DNA of 64,000 nucleotides from Carcharhinus longimanus (lineage: Eukaryota): NCBI GenBank assembly GCA_030264375.1, contig JASCQW010000061.1, forward strand, positions 116,209,457-116,273,456, in the 5' to 3' direction. A program made the position numbers and the translations under genes. Below, piece after piece: positions 18,368 to 63,761 of this stretch. Every line of letters begins with the position of its first letter. The first letter of the stretch is position 1. The notes under the pieces were generated by a model. The model was not told the DNA's origin. It searched no databases and saw nothing but the letters and a program-made list of their open reading frames with translations.

Positions 18368-18490
18368 GACAGGATTTTATGGCTTCACTCGTCCTGAAAC
18401 TGTAAAATCCCACCTGAGGTCAATGGACCTTCCTATGCTCCACCCCTCACATGCTCCGATTCCCATGGCAGGTGGGCTGGTAAAAGTCCT
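18368..18490. mobile_element. Short (~130 bp) MITE-like element
   Basis: Inverted ends ggattttat...gtaaaagtcc; related copies at ~14272-14405, 19855-19960, 23880-24005 and 48292-48420. Confidence 0.55.
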
Positions 18491-19025
18491 ACAGTGTGAG
18501 AAGAGGCCTTTCAGCCCATTGAGTCTGTACCAACTCTCTGACAGAATATCTGATCCTGGCCCTAGTCATAGAATCCCTACCGTACAGAAGGAGGCCCTTC
18601 AGCCCATCGAGTCTGTACTGACCACAATCTCACCCAAGCCCTATTTCCATAATCTCACGCATTTACCCTGCCTATCCCCCTGACACTGAGGGGCAATTTA
18701 GCATGGCCAATCAACCTAACCTGCACCCAGAGGAAATCCACACAGACACGGGAAGAATGTGCAAACTGCACAGTCACCCAAGACAGGAATTGAACCCGGG
18801 GCCCTGGCGCTGTGAGGCAGCGGTGCTAACCACTGTGACACCATGCCAACCCAAAGTCACATGTAAGGCTCATATTAATACTGCAATGAAGTTATTGTGA
18901 AAATCCCTGTCCTATCCCTGTAACTCCACACTTTTACCATGGCAATCCATCTAACCTACACATCTTGGGACACTCAAAGGGCAATTTAGCATAGCCAGTC
19001 CACTTAACTGGTACATCTTTGGACT
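18490..19025 (-). mobile_element. Nested cluster of V-SINE/HE1-type SINEs
   Basis: A full SINE (~18565-18850) and a tail fragment sit inside an older SINE copy. Confidence 0.8.
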
Positions 19026-20214
19026 TTTGGATTTTGTAGATATGGAGGGAGTAGTTGTAATGCAGCCCATGGATCAACTGATGGGATCAGGCCAACCGGC
19101 TCACTTTGTACCTGCTCAATTTTACTTTCCATTTATACTTGTCCCTTGCTCATGCTGCCCCTGCTGTCCGTCCTGGTGGGAATCGTTTACCTCCTTCACT
19201 TACCACTGTGGGGGGATCCTTTTTGGAAAACTTCATTTTTATTGGTACTATTTAGCAATCAGATCTGTCATCATCCGATTGAAAGCTGTGACAAGCTTGA
19301 GAAACTGCATGGCTAACTTTTGTCCTATTGTTCATATAATTGATTGAGTGTTCAAACCTTCCAGTAAAATTAGAATCAGTATTGACCCCCTAATATCAGC
19401 ACCTAAACGAAAGGCTGCAGGGAGATCTCAATTTTCACTATGCCTGAAGCTAAAGAGTTCTGAATCCAGTGTATGAAAATACACTAAGCATAAAGGTTAA
19501 TACAGAACATATTGCCGTGAATGGGCAGATGTCATTATCCAAAACTGATTCAGAAACATCCAGAGTGAAGGTCCTAAATCACCCCTTTGCAGGTCTTATT
19601 CTTTTTAGAGTTTCTTTCATATTAAAGCATGTTTCCCACTAATGTTAATACTGATGCATTCTCATTGTCTAGTAGATAGGACTGTGGATAGTTAGGCTCC
19701 TAAAGGGGGAGACTATGCACTCTATATCAAACCAATCTGTGTCTATATGTTTGAACATGTGTGCATGCATGTAAGTGTGCACAAGCAGTGTATCATACAC
19801 CTGATTGCCCAAAAGAATCCTGTTTGCACATTTTCATGATTTGATGACACAGTGGCTGGGAATTTGCGATGGGAATCATTGCGGGGTGGGATGGCAAAGT
19901 TGACAGATCAACAAAAGGTCCATTCGCTTTGGTCAGTGGGACTGGAAAGTCCTGTTGTGTTTTTCCATATAGTCTGTTCCCTCCCCCTGCCTGTTTACAA
20001 AGCTGTTGACTCAGTACAGTACACTCGAAATACAGTGACTAAGATAAGGATGCCTGGATTAGTTGGGATGTTGGCATGCTAGGTTTTATCACTGGTACTT
20101 GCCTGTCTTCTAGTGGGCTTTGCATCGAGGAATTGGAATCCAGCACAAGGTGAGGTGTTGAGTTCTGGGCCTGACTGTAGGCCACAGGATCTCCAAGTTG
20201 CTGCTGGAAAAGAA

Positions 20215-20450: not shown

Positions 20451-21604
20451 TGATGACAATGATACGGTAGCGTCCATGGGATGTCAAAAGACTTAAAGAG
20501 CTGAAAGGCCCATTCTTATTTCTGGCTTCTTTGTGTTCTTAAATTGTTTCTGAAAATCTAATTTGATTACTATTAGGTTCTTACCACGGAAGTACTGTAG
20601 GTCTTTCTGACATCAAAGTCAAGAGTGTTTCATGTTTTAACCGATTAGTAGTTGGATATGATCAAATGTTTGATGTTATTTCACACTGTTTTTTGCTACT
20701 GTTACAAAGGACATGGAGGTAGGTTTGGAGTGTGTGTGATGTAGACACAGTTGGTAGTAGCAGTGATTAGTTTTTGATTGTGACTAGGAATACCAAATCA
20801 TGTGAGCCTTAGTCCTGCTAGGAGGCTTAGCTCTTGGCCTTCTGNNNNNNNNNNNNNNNNNNNNNNNNNNNNNNNNNNNNNNNNNNNNNNNNNNNNNNNN
20901 NNNNNNNNNNNNNNNNNNNNNNNNNNNNNNNNNNNNNNNNNNNNNNNNNNNNNNNNNNNNNNNNNNNNNNNNNNNNNNNNNNNNNNNNNNNNNNNNNNNN
21001 NNNNNNNNNNNNNNNNNNNNNNNNNNNNNNNNNNNNNNNNNNNNNNNNNNNNNNNNNNNNNNNNNNNNNNNNNNNNNNNNNNNNNNNNNNNNNNNNNNNN
21101 NNNNNNNNNNNNNNNNNNNNNNNNNNNNNNNNNNNNNNNNNNNNNNNNNNNNNNNNNNNNNNNNNNNNNNNNNNNNNNNNNNNNNNNNNNNNNNNNNNNN
21201 NNNNNNNNNNNNNNNNNNNNNNNNNNNNNNNNNNNNNNNNNNNNNNNNNAGCCATGATCTTATTGAATGGCGGGGCAGGCTCGAAGGGCTAGATGGCCTA
21301 CTCCTGCTCCTATTTCTTATGTCATGCCAGGGTAAATGGCTGTATTGTGGCTGTGTTCACAAGGGGAAGATGTTTGCGGTGTGTGTGATGGAACAGTGAA
21401 GTGATAGTTGAAGCTTTAACCTGAATAGTACTTAACAGAGCAACGGCACCGGTCCCGGAAGCTTGTGTGAAAGGTGTTTTGGTAGAAGATTGGAGAAGGG
21501 TGACACAATTTTAGATCCAGATTTTTGGTCAAAACCAATGTCACTGACAGGTATACAGAACAATTTTACATTATTCACTAGCTAATTTTTGGTTTGCTGT
21601 TCAG

Positions 21605-23199: not shown

Positions 23200-23328
23200 C
23201 TAAGAAAAGGACCTCCGGTCCCACCACCTCCAAAACTCACCCCAACAAAGGAGCTGCACCAGGAAAACATTATCAACTTCTTTGAGGACAACTTTGTTCC
23301 CAAGATCAATGTCACCAGTCCATCTCAG
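23200..23328 (+). CDS. AMPH: Amphiphysin exon (PxxP segment + AP2-binding FxDxF): [43 protein letters not shown]
   Basis: CAG acceptor 23197-23199, GTGAGC donor 23329; 129 nt, phase 0-0; FEDNF AP2 alpha-appendage motif and a PxIxIT-like PKINVT. Confidence 0.97.
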
Positions 23329-29556: not shown

Positions 29557-29607
29557 GCCCTGACATGCTGTGGATCCTTCTTTGCTGTACCAGAATTATC
29601 TCAACAG
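29557..29607 (+). CDS. AMPH: Candidate alternative cassette exon of AMPH: ALTCCGSFFAVPELSQQ
   Basis: cccctttttccTTAG acceptor, CAG|GTAAAT donor, 51 nt, phase 0-0, no stop; dense YCAY cluster downstream; no counterpart in the canonical human protein as recalled. Confidence 0.4.
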
Positions 29608-43095: not shown

Positions 43096-43739
43096 TTGGG
43101 TCAAAATCCTCCAGCTCCCTTCCGAACAGCATTGTGGGGGTTGGGCAATAACTGCTGGCCTGACCAGTGACGTCCACATCCCATGGAAGAAATTTTAAAA
43201 TGCCTGTCTAATAAGGCTCCTGGCTATTTCACTGACCCACATTAGCAGTAAATCCACCAACACCTTACCCTAAACCCTTAATAGCCTTGCCCTGTCCTAT
43301 CTCCGTAACTGCTTCTTAACCTGTAGTCTTCCTGACTCTGTGAGCTCTCCATCCCCTTGACATCTTTCTCAATCCATCTCCCTTCATCCCACTGTTGGTG
43401 GCCATGCCTTTTACCATTAAGTCTTAAGCTGTGGAATTTGCTCCCTAAATACCTCCACCTCTCTGTTCATCTTTAAGACCCTTCTGAAAAACCAGCTCTT
43501 TGATGAAGATTTTGGTTACCCTTCCTCTTGAGATCAGCTTTGATTACTTCTTCGCAAACCCATCTTGGGGCATTATTCATCAGTAGAGTGTGATACAAGT
43601 GAAGTTGTTATTGTATTCTAGAGGGACATTGATTTCACGCCAAAAATGGCAAATAACAATGCATTTGTCTGATAGCTGGAAAAACAGTCCTATTGATTTA
43701 ATGTAACAATGCTTCTATCCTTTTTTAATCCACATTCAG

Positions 43740-43763
43740 ACTCTGCCTTGGGATCTGTGGGAG
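43740..43763 (+). CDS. AMPH: Amphiphysin 24-nt microexon (clathrin W-box): TLPWDLWE
   Basis: CAG acceptor 43737-43739, GTAGGT donor 43764; PWDLW W-box. Confidence 0.95.
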
Positions 43764-44269
43764 GTAGGTATGCCTTACTTTCCATTTGAAATTGGCCTCG
43801 TTTTCAGAATTTCACACGGTCTTACTTGTTAGCTGTCTTTTAAAGACTCAACTGGTTATTCATTGCAAGACTGGACAGCAAGCATCATTTTACTCTTTGC
43901 GTTTAGCTAGATGCAAACGGTTGTCAGGTTGAGAAATGTAACAGTTCAGCGTAGCCAGTGAGCAAAAATGTGGAATTCCGTGGAACCTCTGATAACCAGG
44001 ACAGGCATTTAACACAGAGGATCAGTCAGCACATTCTATTTGGCTGCTGGAAGGCTGTAAACTAATGGGTTAATTCAAGAGGCTGCAATGACGTTGATAT
44101 ATTTTAAAAGTTGTTGTGGTTTAATATCTGTTCAACATGCCCTCAACTACGGCTTATCCTTTGATATAAGTCGGAAAATACACAACCAAAAACCACTCGG
44201 AAATAAACTGAGTTCCATTTTGAAAAGTAACAGTAGAAAAGCACGGCGTATTCAGGGGGTGGAGGGGGT

Positions 44270-45260
44270 CAGGGCAATTCTACCAACGAAATTCTAAGCG
44301 TTGAATTAAAAACTGGAGTAAATCACGCTGGTTTTTTTCCGGCGGGAGTTTCAAAAAGAGCCTCCCACACTCTGCACTGCAAAGTGCACTTGGGTAAATC
44401 ACTTCAGAAAGCAGTGGATGGGACCTGTTCCCACCGCAGAGGCCGGCATCATAACGCTCAGCGGGTCACTGCGCATGTGCCAATCTGTCAGTGCCAATAT
44501 TGGTGCATGTGCATTGGCCCATGTCTGCCGGTCTCCTAATTGCTGGCCAGCCTGAACATTGGCCAGCCCCACATCAGCGAACCTGTGACCACCCCTCCAC
44601 CCCCCCACCCCCCCAAACAGCCCGATTGCTGGCCCTCTGAATATCCCTTGACACCGCTGTCCCCAGCTCCCACAGCTCCGATCTCTGGATCACTGCCTCC
44701 CTCACTCTGTCACTCAATCCGAAGTGACAGCGGAACCACTCAACCTCACAGACTGGCCCTGCCCCAGTCACGCTGCCCTTTGGTACAGCCCCTTGCCTGA
44801 TGGGCAGTGGCAGTTTGCCTCTTGGGCAGTGCCAGGGGACCAGGCTGGCACTGCCAAGGTGGCAAAGCCTATCGCCTGGGAGGCCTAGATTGCCCCCCCC
44901 ACCCCCCCACCACTTCACTCCAGCATGGTTGGGCCCCAGCTACCTGCAAATGGAGAGGTATAGTAAATCTTGCTGGAGTGAAATACTCCTGGTGGGGGGT
45001 GGGAGAGAGGCTAGCAGGCCTGGAGACTTCAGTCCCGGGCATGCTAATGATATTTAAATCACATTTAAATTAGGGTCTGCATATATTATGCAGCTCCACA
45101 CCAATTTCCTGTGTGGAGCTGATGGCACCAGAAATCCAGTGTTGGGCAATGCATAGAGGCCATGGCAGCCAGTGGGGAACCCGCGAAATGGCCTCCTATT
45201 AGAGTCTCCCTGCCCCACTGCACTACAAAAGCAGCGCAGCGGGCTGTCAGAATATCCCCC
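44270..45260. mobile_element. Non-autonomous DNA element (MITE-like, possibly Harbinger-derived)
   Basis: Left arm aattctaagcgttgaattaaaaactggagtaaatc is shared with 55340-56105 and 570-654; possible CAG target duplication. Confidence 0.6.
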
Positions 45261-45445
45261 AGACTTTAGGAACCTGTCAAATTGCATTGCAATTGAATAA
45301 TTCTGCATTGCATTTAATATTGAAAATAGCTTGAACTGTGAGATATGACCACAGGGTGAGATAACTGTGAAAGAGCACAGTATATGGTAAGCTGCAGAAT
45401 AGACACTCGGTGCTTTTTTAATCACTCATTTTTGTTTATTTCAAG

Positions 45446-45469
45446 GCAAGCGCAGAACTGGTTCAGCCT
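45446..45469 (+). CDS. AMPH: Amphiphysin 24-nt microexon: ASAELVQP
   Basis: tttgtttatttcAAG acceptor, GTGAGT donor 45470; resembles recalled human TSTDLVQP. Confidence 0.9.
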
Positions 45470-45996
45470 GTGAGTAGTTCGCCTCATTTTCTCATCATGT
45501 AAAGTGTCCTAAAGATAAATTCTCTCTAATCTCTAAGCGCACTTTTTATAGGTTTCTCTCTTAAGGTGCAACTATTTTACACCAATTCAATTTTATGTTT
45601 TCATCTTTGCTGAGATTTACTTAGCTTTTGTTAAGGTAAATTTGTGTCTATTTACTGCATATGTTTTGTTTAATTTATTTCCAATTATGGGGAGAAGGGA
45701 GAATCTGCCATTAGGCGTCCCAGGATTGAAATGGGACTTAAGTGGGGCATTGACTGGGAAACTGTGAACCCATAGCATCTGCTTTTGTAACCTAAACTCC
45801 ATATAAACATTTGACCCCAGAATCCTGTGAGATATATTTGCCAGTATATAATTCTAGGATGTCTATCATATGTTTTTATATCATTTACATTAACTTATTT
45901 TATTGTGTGGAGAAATCTGTTTTTTCTTTGCTCTTTTATCTTCATCTCTGCTTCTATTATCTTTTATATCTGTCTTCACTCATTTTCTGTCTAAAG

Positions 45997-47652
45997 CCCG
46001 ACTCTTCACAAAGTCTCTTCTCTCTCTATAACCCGGCCTTGGAGGAGGAGAGCACAGATGCTGATGCACCAAGTGATGTTACTACAGCAACATCTGAAAT
46101 GGCGGCCAGCCTGAACTGTATGCAGCAGTGGGGATTAACCGATATTGGCCCGCTCACTAGCAGTACGGAAGAAGCTCTAGATGGTTCTCACGACGAAGCC
46201 CAGCCATGTGCTCAGGAACAAGAGACTGCAGAGAGCTGTACTGCCCGATCAGCTGATAGCATTGCGAACCCTGTGTATCAGGCTGAGGAAGAGGAACAGG
46301 GTTCAGACAATGCAATGAATTGGCAGGAGTATCCATTAGACGAACAGGTAGACACTGAAGCCATGGAGAGCAGGAGTTGGCAGTTAAATATGTGTGTGGA
46401 ACAAGAGCGTGACTCCGAATTTTGTATAGATCAGAAGGCATCCTTGGCTCCTAGTGTATCCCAGGACGGAGGCATAGAAATGAGTGAAGAGGAAAGTCTG
46501 AGCAAATTAGGACAGATAAGTAATGAAGATAATTTTGAACATTGTGATTCAGAATCACATCTGAAACAAGAGGTAGTAGAGAATGCAGGTAAGATTAATG
46601 AGACTGAAAGCCACACAGTTGAGGACCCTGGTGCTAGTGATGCAGAAATGGAAGAATTGAACTTGCAACAGCCCAGTGACATTCCCGGAAGCTATCAAAA
46701 TGATAACACAGCTGATCACTGTATAATAGATAGAATTCCACTTAACCACAAAAGTGATGACATTCCAGATAGCCAGGAGAATGAGGACTTTCCTATTATT
46801 TGTGACAATGAGGATACTTTGAGTAACCAGGAGATAGAGGGAGTTGTTTGCAGGTATGAAGAGGATCAAATCGCGGTCCTTCAGGATGACACAGTTGGTG
46901 TTAGCTGTTCCAGTACAGACAGAACTGGCCAGTGTCAGGGTGTAGAGAACCAGTTTGAACCAATTGACACAAAGAACAATGAAACAGATAACACACCAAA
47001 CACAGAAAAGGAAATTAGTCCAGCAGATGGAGCCTATACTGATATCCCAATTGTGAATCAAGCAGATATATTCCACAGAGATGTTGGTGATGACAATAGA
47101 TTTGATCCTGAAAGTCTGGAGTCGGATCCCTGGAACAGAGAAAAGCATGAGATATGGCCAGAAAACTGGGAACCAACTGTTAGCGGCAATAAGTGGGGTT
47201 TCTCTAGCCTGCCAGAAGGCCTGATTAATGGATTTGACCCTTGGCCACCATTTCAGGAAGATCAAGGGGAGTTTGGTTTCCCAAATGGAGATGGAAAAGC
47301 ATATTTTTGGGAAGGGTTTAATGAGAACAATACCGTTTGTCCTATACCAGATTCTGATGAATTTGGTGCCACGTGGGCTGGGAACATGATGAGTGGTTCT
47401 GGTCAGAATGAGGAAACACAATTACAACAGGACTCACTTGGGGACAATGAAATCACTAGTGAGGGAGGCCAAGCTAAAGAGATACATAGCTCCCAAATGC
47501 CCTATCCAATCGAGAACTTAAGCAACGCTAGCAACGAGAGTTCATCCAGCCCTAAAGATAATGAAACAAACTTCTCGGACCTTTCGGAGGATGAGATTGC
47601 TAATCGGAGATACGGACTGTTATACCAGGAGCTAGATGCTGAAAGAGAAGAG
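45997..47652 (+). CDS. AMPH: Amphiphysin giant acidic alternative exon (552 aa): PDSSQSLFSLYNPALEEE...YGLLYQELDAEREE
   Basis: Lies within the 642-aa ORF 45811..47739; long pyrimidine tract + AAG at 45994-45996, GAG|GTACCT donor at 47653; 1,656 nt, phase 0-0, in frame with both neighbouring exons; E/D/S-rich. Confidence 0.85.
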
Positions 47653-47910
47653 GTACCTTGTCAAGTGTTTAGTGTAGAAAAAAAGTTACTAGGTATGACT
47701 AAATACCATTGTAAAATATCAGCCTTAGCTTCATTATGATCCTTGATTCATTCCTTTCCTTCAATCGTCTGTTGTTCTATGTTATTCCTCCCGAAGGACA
47801 TGTCATAATAAATAGCCAAAGTAATACCTGTTGTGTGTGTTATGGTGGTTGGAGTGAAAAAAGTATGTGGTTTTAACCCAATATTTCACTTCTTTCTCCA
47901 TTGTTTCCAG

Positions 47911-47943
47911 ATGCCCAGTGCTGCTTTTAATGGATTCACACAG
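47911..47943 (+). CDS. AMPH: Amphiphysin 33-nt exon: MPSAAFNGFTQ
   Basis: ttgtttcCAG acceptor, CAG|GTAAGA donor; matches recalled human ASGGSFNGFTQ. Confidence 0.92.
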
Positions 47944-48719
47944 GTAAGACAATGCACCCCAGTCCCCTTTAGAAGATGGTTTCATGCGCAGTCAGCTCAG
48001 CTCTGCTGGTAGATGTTAATAAATAAAGTTTCCAAAGTGCAGCTTTGCCTGACTGAGCACCTGGACAGACAGCAGGCACAGGAAAAGTCTGCAGATTAGT
48101 AATACTCAGTGGGGAAAAGGGAGGACTCCAAACGGGGCTGGGCTGGCCCAATCTCGTCTAACATTCCCACTCGGAATGCAGGAGCCCTGAATTTGCCCTA
48201 AGATGTTGGGCACTTAACAACCTTTTCTTTAAAGTTTCTCCAGTCCCAGAAGAGAAAATTGGCAGCACTCTGTATATATGTTGGATTATATAGGCTGGAA
48301 TTTTACTGCCCTGCCCACCACGGGATTCGAAGTGGGCCAAGAGCAGACAATGGAGAAGTCCGTTGACCTAAGGTGGGATTTTATGGTTTCGGGACTAGCT
48401 AGGCCATAAAATCCCATCCATTCAGTCGCGTTTCCCAAACCTTTCCAGCCACGGAATCCTTTTGACCTCCCAAGAGTACTGTCAGAACTCCTAAGAAACN
48501 NNNNNNNNNACAAGAGGTAAACCATACAAAATCAAATTTATAAAATTATCTTCTACTTATATGTATAGATTTATTATAATTAAATAGTTCTCTTCAACAA
48601 ATACTTAAGTCTTAACTTTTTGTCATTTTTAACGGGAGGCATGCTGTTGATGTTTTGCTCAGATGTTGCTGAACAGTCTCAACAGACACACAGACTCACT
48701 CGCAAAAGAAGCAGCAAAA

Positions 48720-52677: not shown

Positions 52678-52740
52678 CTGGATGCTGGTATCACTGAGGG
52701 AGTGGTGGAGCTGTCAAACCCAAGCGTGTTTGATACTGTG
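52678..52740 (+). CDS. AMPH: Amphiphysin linker exon: LDAGITEGVVELSNPSVFDTV
   Basis: Long pyrimidine tract + AAG, GTGAGT donor 52741; 63 nt, phase 0-0, no stop. Confidence 0.7.
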
Positions 52741-58606: not shown

Positions 58607-58666
58607 GAGAGTAAGGAGCCTGAGGTACAGGAACCAGCTGTAAGTGCTGAGACTGGCAGCTCTGAG
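58607..58666 (+). CDS. AMPH: Amphiphysin 60-nt repeat exon, copy 1: ESKEPEVQEPAVSAETGSSE
   Basis: ttttttttcctcccatcAAG acceptor, GAG|GTATGT donor; phase 0-0; paralogous to 63702..63761. Confidence 0.8.
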
Positions 58667-63701: not shown

Positions 63702-63761
63702 GAAACTAAGGAGCCTGAAGTGCAGGAGCCAGCAGTCAGCGCTGAGACTGAGAGCACTGAG
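63702..63761 (+). CDS. AMPH: Amphiphysin 60-nt repeat exon, copy 2: ETKEPEVQEPAVSAETESTE
   Basis: ttattccccttcAAG acceptor, GAG|GTAAGT donor; phase 0-0; 17/20 aa identical to copy 1. Confidence 0.82.

Follow-up and report, generated by a model that had tools for sequence, protein, structure and literature searches.

The retinal amphiphysin variant amphiphysin Ir and its insert are reportedly the subject of work by Terada (2002) and Hosoya (2004). From matches in size and position, we take the insert of Terada 2002 to be, very likely, the giant alternative exon of the amphiphysin gene (AMPH). In mouse, this exon (chr13:19118424-19118912|19119875) measures 489 or 1452 nt (ASCOT, PMC6952364) and lies between flanking exons of 24 and 33 nt (table in PMC9509328). 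Its PSI reaches 92.8 in rods, against 0.55 in brain and 8-12 in SST, PV and olfactory neurons; Atoh1+ cochlear hair cells have a value of 0 (PMC6952364). A 9-nt Amph exon, described as a retina microexon in human and mouse (PMC9303857), shows PSI values of 96.1 in rods, 0.13 in brain and 0.1 in cochlear hair cells (PMC6952364). Upon knockout of Msi1/Msi2 in mouse, the 489-nt form falls from 0.43-0.51 to 0.06-0.17, and a parallel fall, from 0.25-0.31 to 0-0.004, affects the microexon (PMC9509328). The signature of Musashi-regulated exons is UAG behind the donor (PMC6952364, PMC9509328). In human retina, AMPH transcripts that are 406 and 415 aa longer have been reported, together with five peptides from an AMPH 'exon elongation' in which the authors found no domain (PMC11450717). 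A review names bipolar cells as users of a retina-specific amphiphysin 1 variant (PMC11536687); its role there is unsettled, since dominant-negative amphiphysin is reported to have had no effect in bipolar cells (PMC6031744).

The giant exon is thus already known in mammals, and it is modelled by RefSeq in sharks. A study of microexon conservation compared human, mouse, chicken and zebrafish, with sharks absent from its main text (PMC9303857), and passages from PMC10987577 and PMC3046965 add nothing on the giant exon. Searches of the open literature and its accessible supplements yielded no description of this exon in sharks, nor any treatment of its motifs or of when it arose.

The window considered here is a 64,000-nucleotide stretch of the Carcharhinus longimanus genome (contig JASCQW010000061.1). 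It contains 17 exons totalling 945 codons, a sum that counts one exon end at donor 40928. The original prediction had put the total at 925 aa, which omits the 9-nt (20710) and 51-nt (29557) exons, while its figure of 552 from the giant exon stands. The host gene is amphiphysin 1, as catshark and bamboo-shark AMPH map onto the window exons at 70-100%. It spans G000:C61:116080493 to the SH3 exons at 116284422, 11 kb beyond the window end, and combines an N-BAR domain, a clathrin box, PWDLW and a C-terminal SH3 domain in one gene; Pfam matches BAR and SH3 in the AMPH orthologue. The exons at the center of this analysis are the following:

45446..45469, forward strand: upstream exon of 24 nt encoding ASAELVQP, bounded by contig junctions; the mouse counterpart is also 24 nt.
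45997..47652, forward strand: giant alternative AMPH exon of 1656 nt (552 codons), acidic and predicted to be disordered.
45997..46347, forward strand: short in-frame form of the giant exon (117 codons), ending at the internal donor CAG|GTAGAC, with junction 46347>47911 in run X2.
47911..47943, forward strand: downstream exon of 33 nt encoding MPSAAFNGFTQ, bounded by contig junctions; the mouse counterpart is also 33 nt.

The giant exon is preceded by a polypyrimidine tract and AG, ends at the donor GTACCT, contains no stop in 552 codons and is in phase 0 at both ends. Only one copy was found in the shark genome. Its product contains 127 E+D (23%) and 24 K+R (4%), with E/D/S/N making up 41%, and its balance of charge and hydropathy places it with disordered chains. 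AlphaFold2, run with 36 sequences, assigns the insert a mean pLDDT of 45, with 466 of 552 residues below 50 and a sole helix at residues 531-544. The acidic composition proposed at the outset is borne out, and disorder is predicted as well. No Pfam family matches the exon, the PDB offers no sequence match for the terminal 48 residues of the insert, and the ESM Atlas provides no usable match.

Splicing was assessed in RNA-like contigs of cartilaginous fishes, from runs without a tissue label, aligned to 43600-48450; junctions were counted out of four runs (X1, X2, X3 and X10, the last of which yielded no contig here), and contig depth is not equivalent to PSI. Junction 45469>45997 is present in three of the four (X1, X2 and X3) and 47652>47911 in one (X1), so that the predicted boundaries between the ASAELVQP and FNGFTQ exons, along with the two junctions named for checking, have been recovered. 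X1 holds the whole exon as a single 1656-nt contig with 7 differences, shows no skip junction among those listed, and also has contigs that span both flanking introns (depth 19 and 16). The skip junction 45469>47911 occurs in one run (X3), where it is the main path (contig depth 272 vs 10, depth again not being PSI), and junction 46347>47911 from the internal donor likewise occurs in one (X2), as the main path there. Full, short and skipped forms accordingly come from three runs of three studies, and splicing of the giant exon in cartilaginous fishes is three-way and regulated. Internal alternative acceptors, another point raised by the original prediction, amount to two in-frame AG candidates with 14/20 pyrimidines (46465 and 47257), neither of which is used in the contigs. 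Inside the exon a single in-frame donor fits the consensus, the one at 46347 used in X2. The 117-codon form that it produces lacks the Trp-rich island, the terminal motif and any AP-2-type motif.

The possibility that the open frame is a chance or decayed one within an intron is untenable. The weak donor and the lack of a Pfam or PDB match would fit such a frame, but it is refuted by shuffling (open in 0 of 2000 shuffled exons; longest run 63 codons on average and 183 at most), by spliced contigs at both ends, by a frame that is open in 7/7 cartilaginous fishes compared, and by the human peptides. The segment 45997-47652 is confirmed as a true alternatively spliced AMPH exon.

Position and sequence make this exon almost certainly orthologous to the giant AMPH exon that is enriched in mammalian retina, as had been proposed. 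Sequence searches detect it in five other shark genera, skate, bichir, sturgeon, gar, bowfin and teleosts; in axolotl, frogs, lizards, snakes, gharial, birds and platypus; and, among placentals, in rodents, horse, cat, monkeys, apes and human. Insert length ranges from 460 to 612 residues across 23 compared, of which 22 follow xxLVQP/xxSQP or PWDLW-T or are single-exon models, and the spliced forms run into xxFNGF or a later exon. The flanking peptides are the same in human, rat, bird and frog, and shark and mouse agree in exon sizes (83 and 9 nt; 24 nt, giant and 33 nt). Among named sequences, that of Scyliorhinus is closest (75% over the exon and 82% over the last 200 residues). The rat insert matches the shark insert with an E of 2e-12 over the last 120 residues and is not alignable in the middle. 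In a tree of the last 200 residues from 26 sequences, cartilaginous fishes (100/100), ray-finned fishes (99/96) and placentals (100/100) are grouped and tetrapods are separated from fishes (98/95), as expected. Positional homologues with a frame intact in related sharks, which the original prediction had asked for, are therefore at hand.

The original prediction described the insert as absent from the canonical human protein; it is present in human RefSeq isoform X1 (XP_016867484.1), with 580 aa or 1740 nt, and measures 484 aa or 1452 nt in rat. The human size agrees with the figure of about 1.7 kb given for the retinal insert, although the retinal variation comprises two linked events, including the 9-nt microexon, rather than a single insert. 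RefSeq amphiphysin isoforms of Scyliorhinus canicula, S. torazame, Chiloscyllium, Stegostoma, Heterodontus and Heptranchias, all automatic models, have the same exon and boundaries at 64-75% full-length identity. Since models exist in these five other shark genera, the exon was already annotated, and the present finding is mainly a comparative lead. The shark and mouse/human exons share their 24- and 33-nt neighbors, phase 0 at both ends, acidic disordered composition, the sequence of the first 12 and of the last 27 residues, a shorter in-frame form produced by an internal donor, a putative partner microexon of 9 nt and a read-through tail. They differ in the middle, which is 11% identical, and in the Trp-rich island with DPW and WxxFxE in shark, motifs found in 0/11 mammals. 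Retinal use is known for the mammalian exon, whereas the shark exon is known from DNA and tissue-unlabelled contigs.

The internal donor lies after codon 117 in shark, 163 in mouse and, as calculated from 580 - 406, probably 174 in human. These donors may be homologous, with observations on both sides: shark 117 and the calculated human 174 share a W-x8-V[DE]T pattern, but the alignment columns differ, and the mouse 489-nt site misses the pattern when placed on the rat sequence.

Because cartilaginous fishes, ray-finned fishes and tetrapods have the giant exon in common, parsimony dates it at least to the jawed-vertebrate ancestor, in agreement with the ancestry originally claimed for it. No jawless-fish homologue of the insert is present among 29, 43 and 9 matches, some of which were placed by sequence likeness. 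In the BIN1-like paralogue on G000:C32, the stretch from the PWDLW exon to the SH3 exons, of which about 8 of 30 kb is N, showed neither a giant-exon match nor a long acidic frame.

The second retinal event of mammals has a candidate counterpart in the DNA of the same window:

20710..20718, forward strand: 9-nt microexon that adds R-T-W after the BAR domain, with AG/GT flanks and an open frame; orthologue of the mouse/human rod-specific Amph microexon.
20719..20830, forward strand: UAG cluster behind the microexon, predicted Musashi sites (9 BTAG in 125 nt).

The exon upstream of the microexon is 83 nt long in both shark and mouse, and a three-residue insert is found at this site in 20 of 83 proteins that cover it (catshark, cyprinid, snake, bird, rat, cat and primate models). 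The surrounding intron contains high-copy repeat fragments (18370-19030 and 21250-21325) with very many transcribed look-alikes in runs. The 9 BTAG behind the microexon rank in the top <0.1% of window background stretches (a share that rounds to 0.0000), and the 4 BTAG per 125 nt behind the giant exon in the top 1.5% when overlapping background stretches are ranked. Behind the internal donor at 46347 there are 2, which is no enrichment. Both the microexon and the giant exon therefore carry the UAG cluster in the proximal downstream intron that marks Musashi exons. By analogy with mouse, Musashi proteins would act on these shark clusters as well. Against this step counts the observation that the human microexon is not switched on in HEK293 cells overexpressing MSI1 or SRRM3/4, with dPSI 0-1.8 (PMC9303857).

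From the same analogy, the giant exon is probably enriched in shark photoreceptors. An alternative is that it represents a broadly neuronal isoform in sharks and that photoreceptor restriction was sharpened later, in tetrapods or mammals. X1 speaks for this: the giant exon is part of its main form, and the rod-type microexon is skipped in its main contig, a combination that also counts against the photoreceptor reading given that mouse rods include both exons at >90%. As contigs drop rare forms, the X1 pattern counts only partly against a retinal source; the microexon is also skipped in the main contig of X3, X2 has no coverage there, and X11 yielded no contig. The short form as the main path in X2, the 8-12% inclusion in mouse SST, PV and olfactory neurons, which likewise weighs against photoreceptor restriction, and the presence of the exon in every listed catshark RefSeq isoform of a cluster selected for the exon all point in the same direction. 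Predominant skipping in X3, within the limits of contig depth, and the UAG clusters behind both exons argue the other way, and a broadly neuronal isoform appears unlikely on balance.

Conservation of the insert is concentrated in three islands, namely the first 12 residues, a Trp-rich stretch at 376-443 and the last 27 residues:

45997..46032, forward strand: first 12 codons, PDSSxSLxxxN, with 8/12 residues identical to human and 9/12 to birds and bichir.
47122..47325, forward strand: Trp-rich island, residues 376-443, with 2 DPW and 2 WxxFxE (predicted AP-2 alpha-ear motifs) and WPxNW[ED]PT.
47509..47652, forward strand: terminal island with the core SDLSEDExANxRYGxLY, near-invariant, with a predicted helix at residues 531-544.

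The PDSS start is kept in bichir and absent from the ray-finned models P0066, P0068, P0075, P0076, P0087 and P0118 (gar, bowfin and teleosts), in which it is unaligned (start further in or partial). The middle of the insert (13-375) retains 11% identity to human (41/363). Over residues 376-420 of the Trp-rich island (45 residues), 26-27 are identical in bichir, sturgeon, gar and bowfin, 18-22 in birds and gharial, and 6-14 in mammals. Within this island, NG[FL]xxW (47230-47244; NGFAQW in teleosts) resembles FNGF[TA]Q of the next constitutive exon (47926-47943), and the two are possibly a shared short motif.

Definitions of the AP-2 alpha-ear motifs (DPF/DPW and WXX[FW]X[DE]) follow PMC5694535. 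Relative to shuffles, the shark insert contains 2 WxxFxE (0.10 expected, p 0.003) and 2 DPW (0.14 expected, p 0.007), and three teleosts contain 7-11 DPF/W (0.2-0.35 expected), figures that concern motifs picked after inspecting the sequence, related rows and teleost regions that include some flanking sequence. These motifs lie in the disordered acidic context typical of AP-2 alpha-ear ligands (pLDDT <50 in the Trp region), and the island may well bind AP-2. One or more AP-2-type motifs are present in 18 of 25 non-mammals but in none of the 11 mammals. Both motif types are lacking in the remaining seven non-mammals (skate, sturgeon, two frogs, a snake and two birds) as well as in the mammals, so a role common to all inserts cannot lie in AP-2 binding. 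Clathrin-box and PWxxW motifs are absent from 23 inserts. The closest analogues are the AP-2-binding arms of endocytic accessory proteins, in which short DPW/DPF and WXX[FW]X[DE] motifs are likewise set in a long acidic disordered chain; these include epsin (DPW), Eps15 (DPF) and NECAP, stonin and synaptojanin (WxxF-acidic). Unlike in those arms, the motifs of the insert are confined to one switchable exon and vary between lineages, with 2+2 in sharks, 7-11 DPF/W in teleosts and none in mammals. Sequence searches revealed no homology of the insert to epsin/Eps15/NECAP-type proteins.

A general ribbon-synapse isoform, shared by shark hair cells, electroreceptors and retina, would be in keeping with the greater number of AP-2-type motifs in fish than in mammalian inserts. 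Amph is also enriched 4-fold in paddlefish lateral-line tissue, at the level of the gene rather than the isoform (PMC13069148). However, in mouse Atoh1+ cochlear hair cells the giant exon has a PSI of 0 and the microexon one of 0.1, while non-ribbon neurons reach 8-12 for the giant exon, and the strongly electroreceptive skate holds the most eroded shark-side copy, with neither motif. The exon is moreover retained in birds and placentals, which are not known to have ampullary organs. Such an isoform is quite unlikely, and the use in hair cells or electroreceptors suggested by the original prediction is not supported.

The terminal island is the most strongly conserved part of the insert. All 11 invariant columns among 36 sequences fall within 529-552, on the sole predicted helix, and pLDDT rises to ~80 here and nowhere else in the insert. 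Of the last 27 residues, 20 are identical to human, and 19-27 are identical in all 35 other sequences. The four human retina peptides that were compared map to insert positions 184, 403, 549 and 560, the terminal motif included. PxDLS is the CtBP/RIBEYE-binding motif; the terminal SDLS lacks the proline that such a reading would need. A complex prediction for the terminal 48 residues and the shark BAR dimer, run without alignments, scored 0.00 and speaks neither for nor against an interaction.

Immediately behind the terminal island lies the following segment:

47653..47739, forward strand: weak donor GTACCT, a UAG cluster (tandem TAGTGTAG at 47670-47677) and a 28-codon read-through frame to a stop.

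Retention of the intron behind the giant exon would produce an SH3-less form, and an X1 contig crosses 47623-47938 at depth 16, with AATAAA at 47807 in the same intron. It could be argued that the main product of the exon is a brake, its weak donor often remaining unused, so that an amphiphysin without SH3 curves membrane and attaches to coats while being unable to recruit dynamin. Besides the retained X1 contig and the AATAAA, models from sharks, crocodilian, platypus, rat, horse and monkey include read-through forms that stop 9-28 residues beyond the exon, and the 9-aa difference between the two human retina transcripts (+406 and +415 aa) may correspond to a tail length. Read-through tails match [CFY]-S-[VIL]-[VDE] in 15 of 23 evaluable cases (13/17 tetrapod, 2/2 cartilaginous and 0/4 ray-finned), after 10 of 33 rows had been left out as next-exon or cut-off. 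Against the brake, this conservation can be explained at the DNA level, since the pattern consists of the residues that a tandem TAG allows, and the spliced junction in X1 is ~6x deeper than the retained form (102 vs 16). A brake as the main product is therefore very unlikely. The tandem TAG was viewed as DNA for the window only and would, to judge from the tail peptides, also lie behind the exon in other species. A reading of the tail as a CaaX or PDZ signal was dropped, as its last residue alternates between V and D/E.

Taken together, we favor, with a probability of roughly 0.55, a Musashi-switched photoreceptor exon that would insert a predicted disordered docking arm between the clathrin/AP-2-binding region and the SH3 domain of amphiphysin. 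Under this model, Musashi would bind the UAG clusters behind the giant exon and the microexon and switch on both in shark photoreceptors. The acidic chain of ~550 residues would let the dynamin-binding SH3 domain reach farther from the BAR dimer on the membrane. Its DPW and WxxFxE motifs would supply AP-2 alpha-ear sites in addition to the constitutive ones, and coats would be bound with higher avidity while vesicle recycling is sustained. The helix at the end of the insert may fold on a partner, the one function that mammals, which are without AP-2-type motifs, would retain. A more tentative extension, which leans slightly toward the doubtful, holds that the two-exon Musashi photoreceptor switch predates the shark/bony-fish split, that a multivalent AP-2 arm came first and was followed by teleost expansion and mammalian motif loss, and that the 27-residue helix, without change in >400 million years, may bind a partner at the photoreceptor synapse.

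The giant amphiphysin of the retina became known some two decades ago, but a human-retina study of 2024 recognized no domain in its insert (PMC11450717). Comparison across jawed vertebrates narrows the 550 residues of the insert to three short islands and dates the pair of giant exon and microexon to the jawed-vertebrate ancestor. The islands indicate exact residues for mutation, above all in the terminal helix, which has been detected as a peptide in human retina. The comparison does not define a new system but makes the function of the retinal insert testable.

Several further features were observed in and around the window. A 51-nt alternative exon at 29557-29607 (ALTCCGSFFAVPELSQQ), located between the FEDNF and clathrin-box exons, encodes a Cys pair; it is present in 18 stored proteins, from sharks only, and is skipped in other isoforms of the same species. 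Two 60-nt exons at 58607-58666 and 63702-63761 encode near-identical KEPEVQEPAVSAET peptides, indicative of exon duplication, and catshark AMPH contains ~5 copies of a 63-nt exon that is single in the window (52678-52740). At 23290-23328, the window encodes FVPKINVT, where other sharks and mammals have PEISVT or PEINVT; this E-to-K change affects what we take to be the calcineurin docking site. Exons of paralogous BAR genes are located at G000:C32:84289000-84346300 (BIN1-like, with PWDLW and SH3 exons), C184:10275596-10279502 and C99:54283615-54283752.
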